DNA of 64,000 nt from Paraspadella gotoi (taxonomy: Eukaryota > Animalia > Chaetognatha), in NCBI GenBank assembly GCA_051294375.1, contig CM119267.1, forward strand, positions 19,667,546 through 19,731,545, written 5' to 3'. A program made the translations under genes and the position numbers. Of this stretch, positions 23,367 to 56,240 are shown one piece after another (the first letter of the stretch is position 1; each line of letters begins with the position of its first letter). The notes under the pieces were generated by a model, which was not told the origin of the DNA, made no database searches, and was given only the letters and a program-made list of their open reading frames with translations.

Positions 23367-26300
23367 CTAATCGAATGTTTGTTCAAAGTTAAGTACCCCT
23401 ACAGATCTCGGCGGAAAAGAAAATTCTTCGGAAGTGCTCACGTCTTGGGCGTTCGTTGTTTTGAAAAGGGTCAAGAATTTGTTAACGAGCCGAATCTCTG
23501 CAGCTTCTTCGTCGTCCTTTTGATCTTCTTCCTCTCCTCTCTTCAGCGACGTCTTCAAAACGCTGAGGTTTGTCTCGGCGTTGGCCATCGCCATCATCTT
23601 GTCGTTGATCTCGGCCCGATTGGCGTCGAGAACCGAGGCGCCGGAGATGCGTCGACCGTGCTGCCGGAAGGATGGCAGCAGAGCCGCGTCGTAGTGGGCG
23701 TCGAGGATTGCGCCGAGGGGCGACGACGCGATTGAAAGATCGTCGATGGTCAAAAGGTCGACGAGGTGAACTAACGTCATGCAGATTTGATCGATGAGAA
23801 CCTAGTGGGTAAGGTGGGCGAAAACGAGACTAAATGAGCATTAGGATGAAGAAATTAAATGAAAAGAAAGAAGAGAAAAATAAAATATACATGGTGACAA
23901 TTTTACAAGCGCCGGTAGAAATACGCTGTCATTTGCAAACCAGTGGTTATTTCATTGATTTTAAAAATTAGTTGAGGAGAAAATATTAAAATCATTTAGG
24001 TGTTCAAATTTTATATTGATCAGTTAAGATATGCCTTGACAATGAGTGGAGAAAGTTGGCTTGTAAAATCGGGTTTCATTTTCCAACTCAGTTTTTAAAT
24101 TCAATTTTTTTTCACTTTTAGCACTTTTTTAAACAAAGTATTTATTAAGATATTAAAAATATTAATATCTTTAGAAAGCCCTTAAAAATATGAAGAGAAT
24201 GATATACTTACGAAAGCTCTAACATAATAATTAAGCTGCCCGGTGTTGGTTCAATTAAGAGTGTCAAAAGTGAATTATCTAAAATTTTAAATCTTTTTTT
24301 AAAATATATGACCTGTTTAAATTATTATAACATAAAATATTATTATTTATATAAGTATCATAAAAGAGCCTGAGAAAAAAAAGATTTAAGATAGCCAATC
24401 ACAATTTGATAAAAATCTAAAATTTACCCTCCAACTATTTATTTTTAGAAAGATGACTCGTTTTTGAGTTTCCTAATTAAATTAAAGCTTGGCCGGTTAA
24501 ATTTTATATTATAGTATTTGTAAGTACGTCATTCTCTTTAGATTTGAAAGGGCTTTCAGAAGATATTAATATGAATATTATTTTATTTCNNNNNNNNNNC
24601 ACTTTTTTAAACAAATTATTTATTAAGATATTAAAAATATTAATATCTTCAGAAAGCCCTTAAAAATATGAAGAGAATATACTTACGAAAGCTCTAACAT
24701 AATAATTAAGCTGCCCGGTCTTGGTTCAATTAAGAGTGTCAAAAGTGAATTATCTAAAATTTTAAATTTTTTTAAAAAATATATGACCGGTTTAAATTAT
24801 TATAACATAAAATATTATTATTTATATAAGTATCATGAAAGAGCCTGAGAAAAAAAAGATTTAAGATAGCCAATCACAATTTGATAAAAATCTAAAATTT
24901 ACCCTCCAGCTATTTATTTTTGGAAAGATGACTCGTTTTTGAGTTTCTTAATTAAATTAAAGCTTGGCCGGTTAAATTTTATATTATAGTATTTGTAAGT
25001 ACGTCATTCTCTTTAGATTTGAAAGAGCTTTCAGAAGATATTAATATGAATATTATTTAATTTCAAATTTCTTCAGAAAACTTACTGAAAGTAAGATAAA
25101 AAAATTAAATCTAAAAAAGTGAGTTTAAAAATCAGAGACAATTTTCAAATCCATCTTCCAGCTATCATTGCTGAGGCATATCAATGTCAATTCTGATAAA
25201 ATTTGCATATATAAATAGTTTGGGTTTTTACTTTTAAATTCATATTTAACATGGGTTTGCAAATGACAGCTTTTTTTTACCGGCGCTTGTAAAATTGTCA
25301 CCATGTACAAAGCAAACAAAACCGACCACCAAAAAAATTTTACAGTATTTTTTGTATATTTCAATTTTCCAACAACACACCTCTCGATATTTGACTTCGG
25401 AAAAATCGGAGACGATCTCGGCGTTCTGCAGACCGACGAAAAGGCTTTCCCAAACGGTAGCAAACTCAGTAGCGCTCCCGTAAAACCGGCGCTCCTTGGG
25501 AACTCCGAGCGCCAAAGCGGCGTTTATTCGAACTTTGAAGTTCTTGCATTCCTTGACGGCAGTGCAAAGGGCGATGACCATGTCGCGGATCCACGAGGCT
25601 CCCAGCGCGTCCACCAATAAAGGTGCGTTGCGTAACATGTTGGCCAGCGCGTAGCAGGCGTTCCAGCGTACCTTGAGGGAGCGCCCAACAACAGTGAAAG
25701 AATTTTTAAAAAAAGATTTCTTAAGGACCATCAAAAAATAACTACTGAGGCGGTGTGAGATTACTTTCATCAATCCAGTAGCGATATTTTCTATGAGAGA
25801 GTAAACGGCCTTAGCAGAGGCATCCTTAAATGGAGTGACGGCATAAGTGGCTTCGGGAAGATACCGAAGAAGGTTGCCAACGGCCCGAACGGCATTAGCG
25901 CGAACTTTGTCGGTGTCGCCCGCAGCGGCTATGGCACTTAACAACAGCTTTAGCAAGAGACGGGCGTCCAATTCGTTAACGAAGGAAGCTCCAAGCGTCT
26001 CGCGGTTCACGAACCTGAAAGTCGGAAAATTCGTTTTGAATTACTAATTATTTTTACACGGATAATTTTGACGATTCTCACAGCGATTCGCTCAAATTTC
26101 CAAAGGCCCAGGCCGCCTTGATGCGAACCGCTTGCTGTCCCATCGCGTTGTTAGGATAAGAAGAAGAGGAGGAGTCGAGGCAGGCGACGACCGCATGTCC
26201 TACGTCGGAGATGAAGTTGACGTCCTCTCGAAGAGTAGGGTATTGAATATAAACGCCTAAATTTTTTTAATGCGGAACAAAATTTATTCTTTCTACCAAT

Positions 26301-30445: not shown

Positions 30446-32894
30446 TTATGCATCGTCGCTTTGTTTCCTTTTTCTATAAAATACAACGAAGACGTCGAAA
30501 TTAACCTGAAGGTTCGACCCTTCTCCGTTCAAACGGGCGACTTCTGTCTTTAACTCTTCCAATAGTGAGACGTTGTCGGGATCTCTTTTCAGCAAGCGGC
30601 GATACCCGGACCAGGTGTCCACGTAGTTAAAAAAGTCGTCGAGAGGCCATTCATAGTTAAGGGTCAGTGCCTTTGCCTCGCGCCATGAGTCAAGGCCGAG
30701 CGCTAAGTCCGGGAGCTCCAAACCTTCGTAGCGTGTCTCCACATGACGTCTGTCCGCGGGCCAATCGAGTCGCCTGTAAAACCGATATAGCGTTGCGTTC
30801 AACGCATTAGTCTCATCGGAGACGTCGAATTTGTGACGGGAGCCGATAACAGGGGTGGAGTAGCCGAAAATGGCCGCCAAACCACCAGGAAAAAGAATTC
30901 TCCGACATTCCTTCAAGAAACCGGCCATGTCGAACCAATGTGCCGCCTGTATAGTATAAGAACAAAAAAAAATGTCCTTGGGGAAGGTATCGCTGTATGC
31001 CTATTGCCTAACCTGTCCGGCGATGACCAAATCTACGCTGGAATCCTCGACGTTGACTTTTTCGGCCACGCCGACCTCGAACCGCAGCTCCTCCGTCTCC
31101 GAAGAGATTTTTTTTATCGCTTCTGCGATTTGATTGGCTGAGGGATCGGTTGCCAAAGCTCGGCGAAAGTAAGTCAAAAAGGGTAAGGTGCTTTGCCCAC
31201 TACCGCATCCGAGATCGACCAGTTGATTCCATTTGCCGTCATACTTAAAAGCAAATATTCTTAGGCATTTTTTAAAATCTTATAGCCATCTTATGAAAGT
31301 TACAAAATTACTTATCTTGTTATCTTTATTTTTTAGATTTAAAATAACTTATTTATAATTTCATTTATTTGTTAAAATATTTTTGTGTTAAATATTTAAA
31401 TATAATATTATTTATGTTTGGGATGGGGACGTTTTCTGGAAATAGAGGGTGCATCTACACAACACAAGGTTAGATTACTTTCTGTTCCAGTTTTCTAATA
31501 GATATCGTACATCATTCCTGTCGGAAAATCATTAATGAAAAACTCATAATATCTATAAGGCCGAACAAAAAGGGGGAATGTATGGCAACGGAAGGATAGC
31601 CTGTGATACCCGGGGCGCGGGGTATCTCACCAACTGGCGTAGGGGCTGCGGACCCTCAGTGACCGCCTCCTGTCACTGGCATGTTTATACCGGCACCGTC
31701 ACATTTAAGCCAGAACCGGGATACCCAGGGATTGAACCCGGGACGCACGGATGGAATGAGATGATTTAGCCTGCTCAGCCATTGAGACGAGGCTGAGGAC
31801 GGACAGCAGTGAGGCAGCTTTAAGTCTTGCTGCCACAGGATCCCCCCACCAGACTTCTCCACAGGGGCCTCAATCCTGAGGAGATGTCTGAGAGAAGGTT
31901 TTGATCTCATTGCCATAGTGAGAGCGAGCGGGCGAGCGAGCGAGTCTGGAGCGTTACCAGAGAAGTAGGGCATAGGCGTGATATGCATACCCTAAGCGAC
32001 GTAAGCATGGGCGCACGGTGCGCAGCGGTTGCGTGTTCGAGAGTAGGGCTCACCACTTATGGCAACGGAAGGATAGCCTGTGATACCTGGGGCGCGGGGT
32101 ATCTCACCAACTGGCGTAGGGGCTGCGGACCCTCAGTGACCGCCTCCGTCACTGGCATGTTTATACCGGCACCGTCACATTTAAGCCAGAACCGGGATAC
32201 CCAGGGATTGAACCCGGGACGCACGGATGGAATGAGATGATTTAGCCTGCTCAGCCATTGAGACGAGGCTGAGGACGGACAGCAGTGATGCAGCTTTAAG
32301 TCTTGCTGCCACAAATGTATAATTTTTGGGGGGATTAATGTTGTGTAATAATCCTTTCTTTTTTGTTATGATGTAAATTAGGGATAAAGTTTGAAAGTTT
32401 CAAACTTTATCCCTAATCTACATCACAACAAAAAAAGAAAGGGATTAAGGTTATATGGTATGATTATTTTTATCTTAAGGATAAGACTACATGGTAGAAT
32501 TGTATGCTCTGATAGGGATACATACTGGGGAAATTTTTTAGGGGCAACTTTATATTTCGAATGTAATTTTAATTTTTATATATATATATATATATATATT
32601 TCTATATCGTTTTTTAAGTCAAATATAAAGGTCATCAGTCGGGAACCTATACCCTTCATGGATTTCGGCTCTTTAATCCCAATATCCAGGTATAGGCGAG
32701 CCATCACCAAATTATGTGATAATTATTTCCTTATCTTATTCCTGAATTTTTTAAATTGTTTTAGCCCTTACATCAGAAGGTCGTTTGTGACTCAAAGTTT
32801 CCATGATGTGCCGAACCAATTCCTTGGAGTAACTTGGGCGGTAAATTGCGTACGCGGCGGCATGCGACGCTTCTTCAAAAAACGACTTCGACAT
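30446..32894 (-). CDS. Class I SAM-dependent methyltransferase (Methyltransf_11 type), 3 exons
   Basis: MSKSFFEEASHAAAYAIYRPSY; LVDLGCGSGQST; TDPSANQIAEA; SVDLVIAGQ|AAHWFD; YVDTWSGYR. Confidence 0.85.
31634..31713 (-). ncRNA. Twister ribozyme, type P5 (3' LTR, family B)
   Basis: Same core as 32111-32189; predicted cleavage 31687^31686. Confidence 0.8.
32111..32189 (-). ncRNA. Twister ribozyme, type P5 (5' LTR, family B)
   Basis: P5 CTGGC/GCCAG; P2 ATGT/ACAT; GA-CGG vs CCG-CAGC; U^AA (32163^32162); GCC; P3 AGTGAC/GTCACT; P4 AGGG/CCCT. Confidence 0.8.
32204..32257 (-). promoter_or_regulatory. Pol III A box / B box pair in the 5' LTR of family B
   Basis: A box TGGCTGAGCAGG and B box GGGTTCAATCCC at tRNA-like spacing; repeated in the 3' LTR. 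Confidence 0.7.
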
Positions 32895-43029: not shown

Positions 43030-45712
43030 TTAACTTATCAACAAGTCCCTCCTCCTTCCCACAGACTTTGGTCCAGTCTCCCGAAAAGGCGCTTTGTGCG
43101 TGTTTCCCAATCCGGCCGAGCCAATAGACACTTTGTGGTCTCTGGTCAAATAAGGCGCCGTCGATGACTTTGACGCCGTCGCATAATCGTCCGCTTTGCA
43201 CTGGAGACCGACGCTTGTCGATGACGTAGGCAGCGACTCTCCGTGGACCGTGGCCACTTTTATCTCTTTCGGCAACTCCATGTCACCCATGAGGATCGTG
43301 TTGATGCGCGACACCATATTTTTCGGCAGAGCGGTGGCGAGATAGAGCACGTGATCGGTCAGATCGACGGCCCTAACGATTCCCAGGCCGAAGGCTTCGA
43401 TCGGCGGCAAGGAGCCTCTGGTGAAGAAACGAGGCCCCAAATACGACGGATCTTGGGGAGATGTCGCTGATGACCTTTTTGGCGAAGATGTCGGCGAAGA
43501 TTTCGACGAACGAGGAGTGGACGAGCTCGACATGGCGTGAATACCCAGTGCCACCATACTTCCGTTCAACGCAAACAGAATCTGTGAGTTTTTCACTTTG
43601 GCGTGAACGACGGCCACGGCCAAGTGACTCATGGGAATCTTGTATGGCGCCATGGCGAGCGCTTTGGTAATTCCTAGATGTTTCTCCGAGAGGGCGCCCG
43701 AAGACCAATGAGCGATGAGCGTCATGAGTCTGATGTTAGGGGCGCGGTATTTGTTGTGGAGTTCGATCATGAGGTCGCCGACGGGAGAAAAGACGGATAC
43801 TAGTTTGTGCTCGCAATTACCTTTCCCATCTACTCCGCCTCCGCTCCGTCGCCGTCGAGATCGCCCTCGCCAACCCAAGTTCGATTCGATAAATTCGGTG
43901 GTAATGGGCGGAAAGTTTTTCGCCGGCGCCGCAGCGTCCAACTGAATCACGTGACTCGGGCTCACGAGACGTAATAAATCGACCATCAGGGCGACTCCGA
44001 GCCCCTTGTTCCAGCCCATAGTGTTGACGATCAAGGGGCAAGGTGTTCGCCCGTCGGCGACGGCGTTCCTGATTAGAGGGAGGCCGCGGTAAGCGTCCAA
44101 GAGCCGCTTAAGTCCGTCCAGATAAAGCGAGGGGGTAAGGGCGGGAGAATTTCCGCCCCCGAAAACGGCGCTTATCAGCGCGGGTCGGTTCTCGTCCGCC
44201 TCGTCAAAACCGGCCAAGTGAGTAAAAGGAGGCCCGAACACTGGATGCCTCACTCGCACTAGACCCATTAACGATGGCGGGATGAATTCGGACTGACCGA
44301 CGTCGGCGTCGAGATAGAGAACGCCCTCGGGGAACATGCGAACGCCCGAGTCTTTGTCTACGGCCGAGAGGAGGGCGTTAAGAGTGGTCCGGGCGAACGT
44401 GGACTTGCCGGTGTTCTTTCCACCGACGACGACGATTTTCAAAGGATCCTTGGAATCGACGCCGTCGAGCACAGTCTCGATGGCCTTCCAGTGAGCGGCC
44501 GGAATCATCATGGGCCGCTGCCACGGTGGCGGCGAATACTCGGCCTCCTCGTCGAAGTTCAACACGTAAGAGCCGAGAGGAGCCAGTGGCGTGTCCAAAG
44601 CCGGTTCTTGGCCCGCGTACTTTTCCAAGAAGAGATAGCGAAAGAGCCCCGTCGCCGAGGTGACGGCGTCGCAAAGGTCGCTATCGAGACGCTCCAAAAC
44701 GGCGACGGTGGGAGCGACGCTGACTCCGTCCTCGGCGTTGACGATCAATCGCGTATAAGTTTCTTTCAGTTCTTTAGAGAAAGATTCGATCGAGATCCCT
44801 TTCGGCTTCAAAATCTCTTCGAGGCGCTCGACCAGTTCCGCATCCGTGGCATCATCCAGGCCGTCGTTAAAATCTTCCACAGTCAAGAGGCTGCAAGAGT
44901 CGGGCGAGAAGAGATCGTGGGAGTCGGAGTCTCGCCGGCCGAAGACGAAGCCCATGCAGTGGAGGCGACCCGCGACGCGTGTCAGTCTCAATTTGCCCTT
45001 AAAGGTGAAGCTCGCGCCGTAAGGAAGAAAGAGGACAATGACTGGCGAGTCGAAGCCCGTGATCGAAACAAAAGACGCTTGCAGTGCGCGAAATGGAGAA
45101 GTTTCGGGCTCATCGAATTCGTCCTCTAAATAGGCGGGTCGAAGCATGCCCCCCGGGGAAGACGCCGCGGATTCTGAATAAGGAACGACTTCATCGGGTT
45201 CGGCTTCAACGACTGTTTTTCCGGTTGAAGACGACGGATCTTCGGTCTTATCAACGGAAGATTCGGACGGATCTTCAGCCGATTGGATACCGTCCATTTG
45301 CTTGAAAAGTGATTAAAACAATTGACAAAATTTAAGAGATTTCACTTTACTACGCTTGTTCTTTTTAAGATTACTTAAATACCTTCATCCTATTTTTCTT
45401 GCTTTTTCTGTTTCTTTTTCTCCTCACGTCCACGTCTTCTTTCGACCTATTTTTAGGCACCAACGCTTTCTCCCGCGAATCTAGTTTTCCCGTTTTCCTT
45501 TCTTCCATTCTTTTCCCGCTTTCGTCACCGTTGCTCTTCTTTCTTTCCGCTTCCATTTTGATTTTAGCACGTTTCGCTTTGGGCGAAGTCTCGTGTTCGG
45601 ACGCGGCGTTTCCCGCGACGTCTCCGACAACGGCGGCTGCTTTCGGCTGTGCTACGTTTGCCAATATTGCTTCAGTTAAACTTTTACTACGCTTGGAGTA
45701 TTTTTCAGACAT
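43030..45712 (-). CDS. NOL9: Polynucleotide 5'-kinase NOL9; exon 1 45383-45712 joined by intron 45301-45382
   Basis: GGKNTGKSTFARTTLNALL, YLDADVGQSEFIPP, FGPPFTHL, PLIVNTMGWNKGLG, GLGIVRAVD. The Lys-rich ORF 45371-45712 splices in phase (RMK|QMD). Confidence 0.9.
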
Positions 45713-45796
45713 GTTGCAAAAATGCAGAGCGAGATATTTGCTGTTTTAAAAACTGTTATGGAGTAATAGACAACAACAAAGCGATTTTATTTTGGC

Positions 45797-47426
45797 TTAA
45801 ACAATCTTTTTCAAAGAAACAATGTCGTAGTCGCTGTCGCCAAACTCCCTCGGATGAGAGTCGCGATCAATACAGGAAATTTTAAAGTTAAACTCTTCTT
45901 GGACGATTCGAAAAAACTCGACTTCGCCGAGACCACGGGGTTTGTAGGAGAAGAGGACGAGAGACTCCGGATGCGAGAGACAATCGACGGTCCGCGCCAG
46001 CGCCCTCAACACATCCGGGTCCGAGGAATATATGACGTCGGATCCGAGTACGACGTCGACGGAGCCGCGAGGGATGTCCGCCCAAACTGACGCTTCGTCG
46101 TCGGTCCAGTTGAGCGGCCGACAGGACACACGGTGGAGGCGGTCGCCGATTTGAGCTCGATTACCTTCCAAGCATCGACCGGTGTGGTCGACGGCGTCTG
46201 AATGATCAGTGAGAACGACCTCGGCAGCCCCCAACAGGCCCGCCACCATGCCAACCAGCCCGCAACCCGCGCCAAGTTCCACCGCTTTTTTATTTGACCA
46301 AAAACGAGGGTTGGGGTGACTGGTTTCCAGATATTTCGCCAAAAGATAGGAACCGTCCCAAAGCTTCAAATGGGTATTACGATTTACAGATATTTCTTTC
46401 TCTACATGGTGACAATTTTACAAGCGCCGGTAGAAAAACGCTGTCATTTTCAAACCCATGAAGATTTTTTCAATATTAAATATAAATTTAAAAATAAAAA
46501 CCCAATCTATTTATATATGCAAATTTTATCAGAATCGACTTTGATATGCCTCAGCATTCAGCAATGATAGCAGGAAGATGGATTTGAAAATCGTCTCAAA
46601 TTTTTAAACTCATTTTTTTTAGATTTAATTTTTTTCTCTTACTTTCAATAAGTTTTCTGAAAAAATTTGAAATAAAATAATATTAATATTTTCTGAAAGC
46701 CCTTTCAAATCTAAAGAGAATGACGTACTTACGAATACTGTAGTATAAAATTTAACTGGCCCAGCTTTAATTTAATTAAGATACTCAAAAACGAGACATC
46801 TTTTTAAAAATCAATAGCTGGAGAATAAATTTATGATTTTTATCAAATTGTGATTGGCTATCTTAAATCCTTTTTTCTCAGGCTCTCTCATGATACTTAT
46901 ATAAATAATAATATTTTATGTTATAATAATTTAAACAGGTCATATATTTTGAAAAAAGATTTAAAATTTTAAATAATTCACTTTTAACACTCTTAATTGA
47001 ACCAAGGCTGGGCAGCTTACTTTTTACGTTAGAGCTTTCGTAAGTATATCATTCTCTTAATATTTTTAAGGGCTTTAATAAAGTGCTAAAAGTTCCAACA
47101 AAAAAATTGAATTTAAAAACAGTGAGTTGGAAAATGAAACCCGATTTGAAAAGCCAACTTTCTCCACTCATTGTCAAGGCATATCTTAACTGATCAATAT
47201 AAAATTTTAACATAAACAGTTTTAGTATTTTCTATTTAACCAATTTTTAAAATCAATGAAATAACCACTGGTTTGCAAATGATATCGTATTTCTACCGGC
47301 GCTTGTAAAATTGTCACCAAGTAAGTTTTGATAGGCTGTTAGAGAAGCTCCACAAAAAGAAAAGATTCTTTGTTCTGATTTGGTGTCCAACCGTGGATTG
47401 TTATATCGCCAAAGAACTAACGCCAT
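45797..47426 (-). CDS. METTL21-family protein-lysine methyltransferase, coding sequence interrupted by a MITE (candidate new intron 46402-47317)
   Basis: MALVLWRY...IFSFCG N-terminus resembles METTL21A; LWDGSYLLAKYL, VELGAGCGLVG, VVLTD, DVVLGSDVIY. Confidence 0.85.
46405..47321. mobile_element. TA-targeting MITE (917 bp) inserted in coding sequence
   Basis: TIRs CATGGTGACAATTTTACAAGCGCCGGTAGAAA / TTTCTACCGGCGCTTGTAAAATTGTCACCAAG; TA at 46403-46404 and 47322-47323. Confidence 0.92.
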
Positions 47427-47660
47427 AATTTCATAATAAATTGTAATCTTAAAAAAAATTTTGATCAACAAAAAATACAATCAAAAGCTCAAACGAAAAC
47501 TATAAAAAAATAAGTGATTAATTTTCAGAGTGTAATTTCTTTCGTTTCGTTGTAGTGGGTAAGTTTTAGAAGCAAAACTTTTTATTGTTTAAACAATATT
47601 TAACTTTCATAAAAAATAAATCGTCAACTTTTTTTTCACAAAGTTTTTTTCTAAAATTTG

Positions 47661-49327
47661 TTATTTTTCGGTCTCTCCCCAAAGTCTCATGACTTTCAAG
47701 CTTTCCTCTTGTAGTTTCACCATCTTCAAAAAAACTTCGTATTTGGCATCGTGAAATTTTTTCACCTCAAGTCTCGGCTTAATCTCTGTGCCATCGCCAC
47801 CCATTTTGTTCATGACGTCAATCATGCTCTCTTTCCCCGCGGCTTTGGCGCCCAGCATGGCGGCACCGAGCAGAACCGATTCGCTCGTATCCGGCAAAAT
47901 GACCGGAAGGCCCACGACGTCGGCGTGAGTCTGAACGAAGAGATCGTTTTTGCTCAACCCTCCGCACATTGGAAGCACCTGCCGCCGATGATATGAAACG
48001 AGCTAGTAGTATTATATTGTCAGAAAATTTAGCTCACCGACAATCAGATAGCGACTACCTTGATTTTGTGTCCGCTTTTTTCTAAAGCAGCTATGATATG
48101 TTTGGTGCCATAAGCGAGGGACTGAATAGTTGCCAGGTATTGAAGAGCGAGATCGTCGAGGTCGGACGAGAGATTTAGCCCCATTATCATTCCTTTAAGA
48201 GCGGGATTGGCAAGCGGGGATCGGTTTCCGTGAAAATCAGGCCAAAAATGAAGATGCTTTACAGGAAGAAAAACTGTCAAAAATTTGTAAACTCGGTCAA
48301 AACAGCAGCGATACAAACCTTCACCTACTTGTGTCAAATACTCGACGTGTTCCAAATTATGATCATTCCTTAATTTCCTCAAAATCCGGTTCAACTCGTC
48401 GTGAGGGTGAGAGCCCGATTCCTTGCTAATTTTTAGGAGTCCTTCACTTGCGGAGTGACCTTGGACAATCCGATCTAACAAGGAACCCGCTGCGCTTTGT
48501 CCGGCTTCGTTGGTCCAAAACCCGGACACAATCGACGAAAAATACGGGCCCCAAACGCCAGGAACGAAAATCGGGTCGCGTGATATCGCCATCTGAGTTT
48601 AACATTAATTTCATTGTTGCTTTGAACATATCACATTTTCAAAACCAGTAGTTATGTACTCACATGGCATGACGAAGTTCCGGTAATTAACGGTAATCTC
48701 TCCGCCATTTTAAAACGGGATAATGCTTTGCATCCAAAAAGCCCGAGGCCGCCTGCATGAGCGTCGATGAGACTTGTTGCCACCGCCGTCCCTTCGTTTA
48801 ATCCCAGGGCTTCGGCAGCACGCAAAGTCAACCCTGAGCGGCGAAAAGAGAAAGTTCAACGGTTTTTTACATCACATGACAAAAGAACAATTGTAGTTGA
48901 CCAGAGCCGGAGGGCGTTCCAGGTTCTTTCGCGTTCGACCCGATCTTCTGCGCGTTTTCTGACAATAGTTCTTCCAAACCCAATTCTTTCAGAAAATTCT
49001 TGTCCCAAAATCCCGGCAGTCCTTCCGTCAGTTGATAATTCCATTTGCAAACGACGGAGCATGTAGATCTAACGTCAAAGTTGACGAAGATAACCTATTT
49101 TTTTTCTTACGATTTTATTATTTTTTTTCTCGCGAAGAATCTCCACCTAACACCACCTGCTTTCATCCCCCGTTGCTTTCCAACTAAGGAAGTCAGGAAG
49201 TTCAAAGAGGTGACCGATTTTGTTCCATTTCTCTCTCGCCAAATTTCTTTTCAACCACAATAATTTTGGCATAGCCATTTCCGGAGATATTTTCCCGCCC
49301 ACGTACCGGAGGACCTCGTGACAGGTT
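47661..49327 (-). CDS. FGGY: FGGY carbohydrate kinase (D-ribulokinase); 5' exons not found in the window
   Basis: [49 protein letters not shown]|[45 protein letters not shown]. Confidence 0.92.
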
Positions 49328-49505
49328 CTGCGTGGTCAAAAAAATTCTTGAAAATATGATCTCGCCTGACGTTACTATCAAAGAAAATTACTGCAAAAAT
49401 CCGAGAAAAAAAACCGAATGATTGATGCGATAACGAAGTATTGATGTAATAGTAATTGATTATTGATGTAATAGTAATTTATTATTGATATAATAGTAAT
49501 TGTGA

Positions 49506-49676
49506 TGATGCAATGATAGTCATTCACTGATGCGATGATAGTCATTCACTGATGCAAAGATAGTCATTCACTGATGCAAAGATAGTCATTCACTGATGCA
49601 AAGATAGTCATTTACTGATGCGAAGATAGTCATTTACTGATGCGAAGATAGTCATTCACCGATGCGAAGATAGTCA
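49506..49676. repeat. 22-bp minisatellite (TGATGCRAAGATAGTCATTYAC), about 8 copies
   Basis: Direct tandem units visible; related units near 59011 and inverted near 61690-61727. Confidence 0.85.
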
Positions 49677-50881
49677 ATGTGAAAACGTAAGAAAAAATGC
49701 GAAATCGAATCGGTGAGAACCAAACTCGAAGAGCGCGAAAAAAGAATTGACGGCCAAGGCGGTCAATAGGCCATAGCGGTAGCGGTAGCCATAGCGGTAG
49801 CCGACCAAATTCAAATTTTAATGGGAACAGCATTAAACTAGAGATGCGCATCGTTCGAATCGAAGCTCCTATCAAGATTCTTTTATATTTTACTTCTATT
49901 CAAAACTGCATAGTCAAGGCTAAAACAAATTATGTCAATATGGGCAGATTTCGAAAGCTTGGCGTCTTGGGAAGCCAATGTAGGTAGAGCGCGATCGAAA
50001 TTCCCATTTTATCATGCCCAAAATGGTATTTAAATGGATTGGTCAGACCGTTTTGTCCCTATTCCAGAAAACCTCCTGGCTCTTGAGTAAAAAAGACTAA
50101 ATCATACATATCAGTACAGTTTCCGAAACCTTATTGTCTTCTCTACATGATGAAAAAAAGCCAAATTAAAATTCTTGCAATATTAATTGCTTGATAAAGC
50201 AATCAAATGAACTGGTTTTTTAAGTGAAAACTGCATAGTCAAGCCTTCATTTTTTTCAATTTTAAACACAATTGACAGAAACTGTATTGATTTTACTATT
50301 CAAATCAGGTAGAGCGCAGGCTTAATTCAAAAGCGTTTCTCAATATAATGCAAAATTTTAAAAAAGTTCAATAAAAACTTATTAAAAACAAAAATCGTCG
50401 CACAGTGTTGCTTGTGAGTCCTAAATGCTAGAAAAATATTTTTAAAAATTTTTTATATTACTATATAATATATAAAAATATTTATATAATATAATTATAA
50501 TGTTAAGAATAAATTTTTTTATTCAATCCGAGAAAAGTAGTATTATATAATAAAAAAAAATATATATATAAAAAATTATATTTTACAATAAAATTAACTA
50601 ATTTTTCCAAACTGCGACAATTTTTTGTTATTATAGTATAATTAAAAAATATAAGATTAAAATAAAATTTTAATTTTAATAAAATATAATAATCATATTA
50701 AATATAAAAAATCAAAAAAAATTTTAATTTTTTATTTTAATAATAATAACAATAATAATAATAATAAAAATAAAATAATAATAATAATAAATAAAATATA
50801 AATATTTTATTTTTTAATTTTATTTTTTTAATTATAATCATTATTTTATTATTATTATTATTTTATTATTATTATATAATC

Positions 50882-53800
50882 TGTAGAGATATGTCCCCCA
50901 TTTATTTGTTTGCCTTTTATTATTACCGTTTCTGCCGATAGATGTCTTTTTCCTTTTCTTTAAGAGATTACACTCCTCTTTCCTTTTCTTACCAGATATT
51001 CTAGGCCATGTAGATTTTTAAGACTTTTCCGCCCGTCACCAAACTGCCTTTTACGAGGTTCTAGGACACCCTCATGTCACCATTAGTCACCTTTGATACC
51101 GTTCACAGACAGTGATGCCACGGCCATAGAGCTTGTGGCGAGACCACACTCCAAGAGACTCGTGGGCTTACTCGTGGTCAGACTTTAGGCCCCGTCATAG
51201 ACTGGTGGACGGACTCGTGGCCCACTACATTCGGCCACACTCGGGTGACAATAGCCTCGCCGATTACTCCTTCATCACGGCGAGCCGACGGTTTCGGCGC
51301 AAGCACAACGGCGCTGGACGCGGCCACGCCCACTTCCGGAGGCGTCAGCGGGGGACCTGGGGGACAGCGGTCCTCCGTAACAGCACGACGGCGGTGAAGC
51401 GGAGGCGGCTACACGAGCCACACAGGCAATCGTGTTCGTACAGTAAAAGGCAGAATTTAGTCTCCTCTGGCCTAAGCATCTATTTTGTGTAAAAGATGTA
51501 GAGCTAAAGACGATATTAGTAAAAGATGTTGGGATAAAGATTTTGTATTGTATTACGAAATACTGTCATAAAAAATTGATTTTTTCTCTCTCTTTACATG
51601 TCTCGCACGATGGCATCGGTCTCTCAGAAAAGCGGCGCCCCTCAGAACGGAGCAGATGGAGTCAGTCCGGACGAATTTGCCGAACAGCTTGAGTGTCTTC
51701 CGCATACCTTCGAAGGCCTCTTTTAACCGGGCCGTCGAGACAGGAACGTCAGCGGACCGCACGTCTGCCAACAGCATGAGGGAGGCGCTGTTCAACAAGA
51801 GACAGGAGGCGATGCGTCTGGCGGGAGGCTGGAGAGTGAAAACAACTGATCCTCTGGACGAGGAATTGAAAGAGTAAGATAATTTTTATTGGCAAATCCC
51901 GCTTTCCCGCCACTTTTGGTGGCTACGGGAGACGATACGATTATTGCTAATCCCGCTTCCGATTCCGGCTCTCGAACCGGATCCCCGTTGCTCTTTCCCC
52001 CGATGCCCGTCGGTCGCGGGAAGAGGACGAGTACAGGTAGTGGAAGAACGATGGTTGTGGGAGGAACGGCGACGACGACATCGCGGAAGATCAAAACCCG
52101 ATTGCCCGTCGCTTGAGATCCTCTGTATCGGCGCGCTCCGCTGTTCCAGACGGCCTTCATGACTCCGCCCACCTCTGATTTACCTGTACGGTCGCCGCGG
52201 CAGGGCACTTATACGAGCGCTTTCGCGCCGGTCCTGCCCACGAACACCGACTTCCGGGGCGACGACCATGCCGATGGTGAAACGATAGCCACAGTGGCGA
52301 CGGCGACCGCGACTTCTACCGTGGTCACCTCCACAATTGTACACACTACCTCTGCAGCAACGACAGCTCTACCTCCCGTCAGCTTTGCTGATGAGCAGCA
52401 ACGAGCGTTTGAAGAGGCAGTGCAGAGTAGACACATTTTTTCCGCAACAAATTGTCATAGAAACTTCGGAAAACCACCATTCGATTCGAAATAAAATTCT
52501 CTCTTCGAATGATGTGCTATATGATTAACTTATTGAAAGATTTCGCTTGACCCACGCGCGCGTCAAAGTTCCACATGCGTCAGATTCATTGATTTACGTA
52601 TATTTTGAAACGTTGAAGGGATCCTTATGTGATGTTTTTAATCATTATAGATTGAAATGAATGTAAAAATCCGATGTAGTTGTAATTTATTAAAAATTAA
52701 TAAAAAAGTATTAAGCAAAATATACCGGAAGTGTAATTTTAATATTTTTAAACCAATTTATCTTCTCTCATGAAAAGTGACGGCAAGAGGCAAACAATTC
52801 TTGCGTTGTTATTGTTAACTGAATCTTTAAACTTGAAGTTCATAAGACACTTTGTTTGGCTTAGGGTGAGATCGACGATGTTCTTCAACGCCCTGAAGCA
52901 TTGCTTCATGTTGCATTTTATTACGGGTATTGAACCATTGTAATCACTTGCAAATTTAACCACCCTCTCTGCAGCATCATTGAGTGGCGAAAAATCCATT
53001 TACAAGCTTGCAGAATGAGTGGTAGTTGACGTTATCATTACATTCTTCACAGGTTTCGACAAAAAAAGATGGCTCAAAGTGACAAAGCTGTGTAATAAAT
53101 TATAATAGTCATTGAAATTAGATATAATTAATATAAAAATTATTGATAAAATATTGCAAATTGAACCTGAAAAAAATAAACCATGAATCAGCCGAAACGT
53201 AATCTTCTAATTTGGCTGTTTTCATATACGCATGGTATTTCCGGCTTTCCCATTTCTACTTGGACCTTTTCAGAGCTCAAGAGGGCTTCAGCCATCGACA
53301 TTCTAGTTGAGTTTTGAGACTTTTTTTGAAGCCAAAGCGAGAATAACCGAGTGGCCAGAAAGATATTCGGTGTATGTAAATCAATCTTTCTTAGTCCAGC
53401 ATGGGCCCCATCGCGATCCCTTGATCGCCACGCCATTAGATCTTCATAAAGGGAGAGAGTAAGGAATGGAGCATCTCGCCATGAATGGACAGCAGAACCA
53501 GTAATAAAATTGAAATGTACAAGATGTAATAAGACATCACGAAGACATCCATTTTCTGCTGGTGACTCAAAACGAAAGAATCACCAACGATCAGCATTTT
53601 GAGAATGTAGAGGCAGCTACCATCCAACGAGCGTGATGTATCGTGCTTAGCCTTTTTGTCATGTGAAGTTGAGCTTCTTTGCCAAGAAAAAGAGACGAGA
53701 TCAACTAGATTCATATTAATATTATTATATGAGTGTGCTTTTGGCAATATAATGATAATTGATTTCTAAAATCTAAATAAATCTGCAAACTACAAAGCAT

Positions 53801-56240
53801 TTTGTGCATAATTATTTATCTAATTTTACTCTACTCATATTCTACTAAAAATATGACATTGTAATCTTTTTCCTTAGTTCTTCCTTAGTTCTTCCGAATT
53901 GTTTTCAGGTGAAGCAAAGGGATTCGCGCGTCACCCAGTTTCCAAAGGTTAATTCTAGAGCTACGACATAAGCAGTCTCATTTTTATCTCGTTGGTTTTT
54001 GGGATGAGTGTAAAAAATGTCAAAGAACTGTTCCAATACTGCTGCCCCTTTTGGTGGTTCTGCCGGCGGTGGTCGAAAGTTCGCTAAGCGCTTGCAAATA
54101 CCAAATTCGGCAAACAGAGGAAACTCGCCCCTGTAGCAGAACGAGGTGTTCATGATTAATGGACTGTCTGTAAAAAAATATTATTCTGTAAATAAAATTA
54201 AACAAAGAATAACTATCTATCAGTCACAGAAATTTAATAATTAATACTAAATTATATCGAAAAATAATAAATATTTGTAACTGAGAAAGAGTTTCCAATT
54301 TGGATGTTGTTACCTAGTTGCTTTCAACTCGCCTGGGTCAAGCGAAATATTTTAGAAATTAATTAAATTATATACCAAACGAAAGAGAATTTTATTTCGA
54401 ATCAAATGGTGGTTTTCCGAAGTTTCTTATGACCATTTGTTGCGGAAAAAAAATGTGTCTAGTGCAGAGGGCAGTTAACGATAGAAACTATAAAGCTGCA
54501 CGAACCGAAGAAGATTTTGAGAGAGAGAGATGGCGATGCTGCAGGAAGAAAATGATCGATTAAGACAAGCTGCCGAGAGGCAGTCGGCTCGACGACGTCT
54601 TCGAGCTGCAAGGGAATCTGCAGCCGATCGATTAGCGAAGAGAACACGCGCTCAACGAGTTCCAAATGCTTCGCAAGCGCCGGCGGTCATCTCGGGACCG
54701 GGCGCCGATCTTCCCGCGTTGCGGCGCCCATCCCGATTTCCGCTGAGGTTGGCGCGGACGTCGCGCCTCGGCCGAGAGGTCTGGTCGAGTTAGCAACGGG
54801 TCTGAACGCCTTGCCTGCGAGAAGAGCCGGACCTTCAGCCGAAAACAGCCCGTCGGCGGCGAATCTGACGACTTTGACCGAGAGATTAGTCCGCAATAGA
54901 GATTGTCGCCCAACAACAGGTTGCCGCACACGAGATCGAACGAGAACAGTGGAGACTCGAAAGGGAAAATCTTCAGAGAAATTTCGAGGCCACGGTAATG
55001 AGAATGGTTACATGATTCTAGGCCGCCCAGGCGGCCCAGGCGAGAATGCAGCCCCACGGATAGAAACCCGCCTTCGCCACCTCGGGCACCGCTTCCTCGG
55101 ACCCTCTCATCAGCCCCACGCTTCGACTCTCCACGATTCTTTACCTCAAAGAAACAATCTCAGAGAGATCCAGTGATCGACGCACAACAGGCGCAAATTG
55201 CTCAACTATTCAGAAAACTACGACAAGTACAAGAGAATTTGCGAATCTTTCAGCACACGAGAAATGGTGGGGCGGCTTCCGGGAGGCGTCTCGCTCCTGA
55301 GGCTCTCCCCGCTAGAGACGATCGACTACAACAGTATTTACACTCTCAATCGATAGAGTCGACGATCCGCAATGCTCAAAGATTTACGCCCGGAGAAATG
55401 TTTAGAAACGAAGGTGCGTCAAATAAAGGTTGTCTCGAGATTCACATGAGACAGTGGGAGGCGGCGATGACTCAGCTGGCGTCACACCACAGATGCGTCA
55501 TCAGGAACTACGCCATTGGTTCACGGGCCTCGCCCGTCTCAAACTACAGAAGTACTTCCATCGTACAGACTATTCGGCGGCAGTGGACGAAGCCATCGCG
55601 ATGCTTCACAACGGAATTTGGACGACCCGATGCCTCGCCTCACGAAATGTTTAAAAAGACTGGCTTATCCGGCGGCAAGGCAACGGACGCAACAGAGATC
55701 GACGAGATTACGCGCCTCGAAAACATCGCCGGCATCGCGGAGGCTAAAGGAAGATTACGTGATTTGAATCGCGACACGGTAATTTCGGAGATCCTCGACG
55801 CGAAATTTCCTCAGTGGAAAGACAAATTCGCCGAAGAAAACTCTCAATCAATCTTTAGAAACGGCCGAAAACTCACGCTTCACGAACTGATCGAATTCCT
55901 CAAAATTCACCTAGTCGCGGTGAAGTCGGTATACCATAAAAAGAAAAAGACGACGACGACGACCTTGTAGCGGCGGTTGCGGCGAACGCCGGCCCACCCC
56001 CCCCGTCGACGAACGGTGGGGGCGTAGTGGAGCAACAGAAAGAAACAAAGGCTACAGATTCATTCGATTCGTCCGACGCAGCTGACCCCGCTTTACCAGA
56101 GCCGCAAAAGAAAAAGAAAAAGAGACAGCGAAAAGCGAGCGTAACAGAAGCGGCGCCCCCGGCGCCTCCCCCGGAAGCTGGATGTGCCTACGTCACAGCA
56201 CAACGGCCGATTTATCTGGCCGTTTCAGAGGTCACCCTTT
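50882..56240 (+). mobile_element. Degenerate LTR retrotransposon relic: candidate LTR 50882-51598 plus frameshifted gag-like region
   Basis: TGTAGAGA...TCTTTACA inverted termini; GC-rich broken ORFs; ILDAKFPQWK...LTLHELIEFLK is reminiscent of BEL/Pao-type Gag. No pol and no matching second LTR seen. Confidence 0.4.
52428..54461 (-). mobile_element. hAT-superfamily DNA transposon deletion derivative nested in the gag-like region
   Basis: ~75-bp TIRs TAGACACATTTTTTCCGCAACAAAT...; 8-bp TSD GTGCAGAG (52420-52427 / 54462-54469); transposase C-terminal-like remnant NDAAERVVKFASDYN (52748-52999). Confidence 0.85.

Follow-up and report, generated by a model that had tools for sequence, protein, structure and literature searches.

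In the chaetognath Paraspadella gotoi, a TA-targeting MITE interrupts a methyltransferase gene within its coding sequence. It leaves the RNA as a GT-AG intron of 916 nt, most likely cut out by the ordinary spliceosome, and the gene likely still works with one added residue. This reading is held here at a probability of roughly 0.88. The window, that is, the whole 64,000-nt stretch of DNA analysed, had previously been annotated from its letters, and this initial annotation proposed that the element leaves the coding sequence as an in-frame intron at the price of one extra codon, which is borne out by RNA contigs and by an open frame of 237 aa. The splice junction it predicted, from 47318 to 46401, was looked for in RNA and is found at exactly that joint in the runs X5-X8, and its positions for the TAs, the 917-nt element, the GT at 47317-47316 and the TAG at 46404-46402 all hold (Table 1).

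Table 1. Features of the methyltransferase locus and of the sister element, in window positions
Feature	Position	Strand	Description and basis
Trans-splice acceptor	47448..47457	-	T-run + AG, for chaetognath SL2-type leader; contig ends; PMC2481426 Table 3
Exon 1, methyltransferase mRNA	47318..47447	-	21-nt 5' UTR, ATG at 47426; sequence and RNA contigs
TA target site, upstream copy	47322..47323	-	Sequence
MITE (non-autonomous TIR element)	46405..47321	-	917 nt, 26% GC
5' TIR	47290..47321	-	32 nt, holds donor GT 47317-47316; one change relative to the window's other three TIR copies
3' TIR	46405..46436	-	TIR pair 31/32 identical
TA target site, second copy	46403..46404	-	Sequence
Acceptor TAG	46402..46404	-	Duplicated TA + next host G; sequence and RNA contigs
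Intron as removed	46402..47317	-	916 nt, GT-AG; joint 46401/47318 in X5, X6, X7, X8
Exon 2	45753..46401	-	Stop 45799-45797, poly(A) ~45753; Pfam Methyltransf_16, E 4e-25
Sister MITE copy with TA duplication	23890..25305	+	Over-long: 10-N assembly gap with overlap
HEATR6 intron hosting sister copy	25380-23802	-	Predicted from sequence; 161 nt when empty

The element interrupts the methyltransferase frame after 35 codons. When the element and one TA are taken away, the empty site encodes 236 aa, whereas the spliced form encodes 237 aa and the unspliced form stops after 57 aa. The element brings the donor as a GT five bases into its TIR, and the duplicated TA and the adjoining host G make up the acceptor TAG. 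The exon keeps four element bases, so that exon 1 ends with the four letters with which the element begins; the second TA and the G leave with the intron, for a net gain of 3 nt. The residue added by this copy is Leu, while the other three TIR ends in the window would give His in the same phase. Mobilization is attributed to an unseen Tc1/mariner-type transposase, and cutting would be the work of the spliceosome rather than of another pathway. Six nearby ordinary introns have six different donor hexamers, and the weak-looking donor GTGACA is therefore not out of place. The 3' end of the intron has little pyrimidine tract, and no clear one beside the AG; further AGs near this end (46441, 46400 and 46396) take part in no listed joint. 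At 916 nt, the MITE intron is approximately ten times longer than the neighbouring introns of 62-88 nt. Its predicted fold is one long hairpin with both splice sites at the base of the stem (-266 kcal/mol, z -10.5, 0/20 shuffles), as opposed to z-scores of -1.6 to +1.3 for five ordinary introns by the same measure.

Both copies in the window show the features expected of Tc1/mariner-type MITEs, namely a TA duplication, TIRs, an absence of coding capacity (the longest stop-free frame of the methyltransferase-gene copy is 60 codons) and high copy number. The likeness is to the non-autonomous members of that group, here with no autonomous partner in view, and placement in the Tc1/mariner superfamily is provisional, with the TA duplication as its sole basis. 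Beyond the TIRs, the arms decay to approximately 70% complementarity over about 220 nt. The TIR pattern has four matches in the 64-kb window, all from the two copies, and none in 100 shuffles; metagenome contigs gave 0 matches to the pattern. On the TIR side, depth amounts to 840-1420 times the single-copy depth across three DNA runs, a rough ratio of summed contig depth that is not a copy number, and this points to a family of hundreds of copies or more, again as a rough figure only. The copy in the methyltransferase gene differs from its sister by 7.2% substitutions. Moreover, among the 38 element positions listed, at least 17 carry a letter from which at least 90% of the depth of other copies departs, and at 16 of those 17 the sister copy agrees with the majority. 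To judge from these two comparisons, the copy is not fresh but aged by about 2% or more. It appears to be old and is probably fixed.

The RNA evidence comes from public sequencing runs, of which 11 are listed and nine, from three studies, contain the stretch. Eight were compared, all as contigs; X3 was left out as the same sample as X1, and X10 and X11 as other organisms with no shared words. X5-X8 are four samples from one study, X9 belongs to a second study, and X1, X2 and X4 represent one DNA sample, which is possibly the source of the window. The assignment of X5-X8 to RNA was made from spliced ordinary GT-AG introns of neighbouring genes and from poly(T) ends, not from the run records (labelled 'DNA?'). 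The joint 46401/47318, which skips 916 nt bounded by GT and AG, is present in four of the five RNA-type runs (X5, X6, X7 and X8), on contigs with depths of 198, 594, 541 and 158.5, respectively, whose shorter side at the joint measures 130-140 letters. In all four junction-bearing runs it is the only joint listed at the MITE site, although contigs drop rare forms and minor isoforms. All three DNA runs (X1, X2 and X4, one sample) lack a joint of any kind at the site; these runs also contain no empty allele, and their contigs continue unbroken across both edges of the element. An origin of the RNA from an empty allele was ruled out, as the joined form retains element bases.

In the fifth RNA-type run, X9, the joint is absent, although six ordinary introns are spliced. 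One contig (45383-46429) continues past exon 2 into the TIR, and no contig covers exon 1, a gap that was not counted as evidence of absence. This sample carries the insertion too, and unspliced sequence is present in the run. Of the 952 contigs that X9 places on the stretch, nearly all fall on the element, and the run therefore likely includes unprocessed RNA or DNA. The result does not support the splice reading. Nor does it show that splicing is absent, as short branches go missing from contigs.

In each of X5 and X6, one contig (801 and 793 nt, respectively) links the poly(A) near 45753, by way of the joint, to a leader-bearing 5' end. The leader-bearing 5' ends carry 12 loose letters that match chaetognath SL2.0 (PMC2481426, Table 3), and two further differences in the leader piece are probably the leader's last ten letters set against the genomic acceptor. 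A spliced leader and a poly(A) tail on one contig therefore mark these molecules as mature mRNAs. The FGGY kinase, methyltransferase and NOL9 genes are arranged head to tail and closely packed (43030-49200, minus strand). The poly(A) of the upstream FGGY transcript, at ~47447, roughly coincides with the methyltransferase leader acceptor, and the NOL9 frame starts within ~100 nt of the methyltransferase stop. This array is operon-like, as described for chaetognaths, and operons and trans-splicing have been reported in a chaetognath (PMC12460157). One FGGY intron on the minus strand uses alternative 3' splice sites, giving 49069-49156 (88 nt) in X5 and X6 versus 49095-49156 (62 nt) in X9, and a 22-nt tandem repeat (49484-49698) lies just upstream of the FGGY region.

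Among the other ways of accounting for the joint, the best placed, though improbable, is SOS-type splicing, in which pairing of inverted repeats would drive removal independently of the spliceosome, or a hybrid of the two pathways, the GT-AG joint being only the dominant or decay-surviving isoform. SOS splicing of Tc1, Tc3, Tc4 and HSMAR2 resembles the present case in that exonic TIR transposons are removed at the RNA level, with cuts in or near the repeats and a small indel (PMC12779559). Dependence on AKAP17A, CAAP1 and RTCB, together with resistance to a spliceosome inhibitor, would mark this route. According to the same source, in animal mRNAs ITR pairing sets off the excision of Tc1/mariner elements, and some of the resulting isoforms are GU-AG; the long predicted hairpin with both sites at its base fits such a trigger, and minor isoforms would be hidden in contigs. 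However, the joints described there are multiple, imprecise, heterogeneous and rarely GU-AG, and GU-AG isoforms that are independent of AKAP-17 are assigned to the spliceosome, whereas here an identical GT-AG joint is the sole one listed in four of four junction-bearing runs. Exonic alleles are also described as rare and likely purged, in contrast to the aged copy seen here (PMC12779559).

Less probable still is a DNA allele, carried by the animals that supplied the RNA, from which the element has been excised with a 3-nt in-frame footprint, in which case the RNA would be colinear with the DNA and no splicing would take place. The RNA runs with the joint (samples S2-S5) come without matching DNA, and the sole RNA run of the other study lacks the joint, which leaves some room for such an allele. 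However, the joint falls exactly on a GT..AG pair, and it retains the private TIR change of this copy, so that excision would need to have struck the aged copy itself. Tc1/mariner excision footprints usually retain the second TA, which the joint lacks, and no excision allele occurs in the three DNA runs (one sample). Equally hard to credit is a disruptive insertion, with the MITE retained in most transcripts and splicing no more than a leak. In its favour, X9 has only the unspliced boundary between exon 2 and the TIR, and a transcript retaining the MITE would have its frame end at 57 aa. Against it, X9 likely contains unprocessed RNA or DNA, the X5-X8 contigs cross the joint without a break, at depths of 158-594, which makes the spliced form the dominant assembled one, and both exons are intact in frame with family motifs even though the element has aged by ~2% or more.

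Among solved structures, METTL21A/B/C/D are matched by a full-length homologue of the host protein. The host protein itself is a member of a METTL21-like subfamily that is distinct, largely unnamed and rich in invariant positions (P0001-P0019, 38-51% identity), in which its sole named close match is an uncharacterised annelid protein; a cluster look-up for ten of the homologues yielded neither names nor accessions. Of the 19 closest homologues, P0010 is without the motif and was excluded. A conserved Q precedes the WDG motif by 17 residues in 18/18 of the remaining homologues and in the protein of the empty site, and by 18 residues in the spliced protein. Because the homologues all share the spacing of the empty site, that site would be ancestral and the intron would have been gained. 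As to the intron-free site suggested for a check among orthologues or other haplotypes, the homologue spacing agrees with one, and the DNA runs (one sample) show no empty allele. A search of metagenome contigs for orthologous loci yielded five from 129 candidate stretches, the best being 43% identical, and no true DNA-level orthologue from another chaetognath was identified. One of these loci, L001, has an open frame through the site and the homologue spacing; it was not taken as an empty-site orthologue, being distant and possibly either DNA or RNA.

The position of the added residue corresponds to a coil after the strand formed by residues 27-32 in the predicted model of homologue P0001 (mean pLDDT 87.5), and alignments to the solved METTL21 structures are gapped in the same segment. 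Because of these two features, one extra residue is plausibly tolerated in what the model presents as a loop. Modelling of exon 2 alone was uninformative for the site, with pLDDT below 50 at residues 1-13.

Of the two MITE copies in the window, one acts as an intron and the other sits in an older one. The GT and AG of the HEATR6 intron fall 73 and 86 nt outside the sister element, and when the sequence is joined at the predicted intron borders the frame stays open and the product aligns to HEATR6 homologues. The sister copy is thus best placed as nested in a pre-existing HEATR6 intron, as the initial annotation had it, and not as an intron itself. It contains a 475-nt direct repeat (24202-24976) straddling the 10-N gap, which probably arose where the assembly overlapped two different copies or alleles.

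The potential of the family to form introns was gauged in five of the window's long coding frames, where 41 of 309 TA sites read TAG. Simulated insertion and splicing of the MITE leaves the frame open at 40 of these 41 sites and produces a stop at one, so the earlier assertion that any insertion at an exonic TAG would behave in the same way stands for frame retention at nearly all sites and fails at one. The family could create introns at approximately 1 in 8 coding TA targets. Splicing at other TAG sites is plausible, and so is splicing in reverse orientation, because the two ends of the sister copy share nearly the same terminal 50 nt. A further TIR element, of 2034 nt and unrelated to the MITE, lies at 52428-54461 on the plus strand; it has an 8-bp target duplication and is presumably hAT-like, given the length of that duplication. 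The last base of its duplication and the first of the element form GT, and the element's last two bases and the next form TAG. Judged by its letters, it could also be spliceable in frame, adding two codons; it is flanked by a degraded frame with no Pfam match. Elsewhere in the window, near-identical direct repeats occur at 31581-32313 and 241-768, with spacings of ~476 nt and ~431 nt, respectively.

The mechanism itself has already been published. Introners carry a donor and take an acceptor from the target duplication, and some of them add codons (Gozashti et al., 2022; PMC9860276, Fig. 2F-G). The element described here shares with introners that "carry 5-prime, co-opt 3-prime" an exonic insertion, a non-autonomous TIR structure, a carried donor and an acceptor drawn from the target duplication. 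Among them is a fungal mariner family that targets TA, since the Mariner introners of Colletotrichum scovillei are given as 'TA 2bp TSD' with gt/ag borders, carrying the 5' site and co-opting the 3' site (PMC12130899, 2025, supplement 8). Seven Mariner-classed families are reported in that work, from fungi, a dinoflagellate, wheat and stramenopiles, and the urchin and tunicate rows consulted in it are non-LTR, hAT and LTR (PMC12130899). A 2022 survey of 835 animal and land-plant genomes detected introners in no more than two groups (PMC9860276). By definition, introners form families of several similar introns, the smallest listed having 4-5 members, whereas the MITE in the methyltransferase gene accounts for one intron, of 916 nt, in a chaetognath host. 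The term introner-like, as first applied to it, holds at this locus as regards exonic insertion, GT-AG removal and the combination of carried and co-opted sites; a family of such introns is not demonstrated.

MITE-derived introns of the tunicate Fritillaria borealis, an animal case like the chaetognath one, and the hairpin introns of euglenids likewise bear TIRs, occupy lineage-specific positions and have paired ends (PMC11282704). In contrast to the canonical and so far single intron described here, they have non-canonical borders and number in the thousands (PMC11282704). Single transposon-derived introns are on record from numerous eukaryotes (PMC11282704). A literature search of titles and abstract openings found no chaetognath introner or transposon-derived intron in print, the names Spadella, Paraspadella and Chaetognatha have no match in the supplements of PMC12130899 (files 13 and 14 apart), and neither 'MITE' nor 'mariner' occurs in the main text of PMC12460157.

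Few intron gains in animals can be traced to a source, and the MITE route is known but rarely documented there. For the methyltransferase MITE intron, the source element, the target site, a reconstructed empty site and the RNA junction are all available. A single locus leaves views on intron evolution unchanged, and a wider reading is doubtful. Under it, the family would be a genome-scale arrow-worm introner and the first TA-target mariner-type one in an animal, with symmetric ends that furnish an intron in either orientation at nearly every TAG in an exon, a hairpin holding the splice sites together and several fixed introns seeded, each with a one-codon scar. As the splice sites lie at the base of the predicted TIR stem, the locus offers a natural test of the spliceosome versus SOS splicing on a long-standing exonic transposon. 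If the family were indeed such an introner, it would show exonic insertions that are buffered at the RNA level turning into permanent introns.
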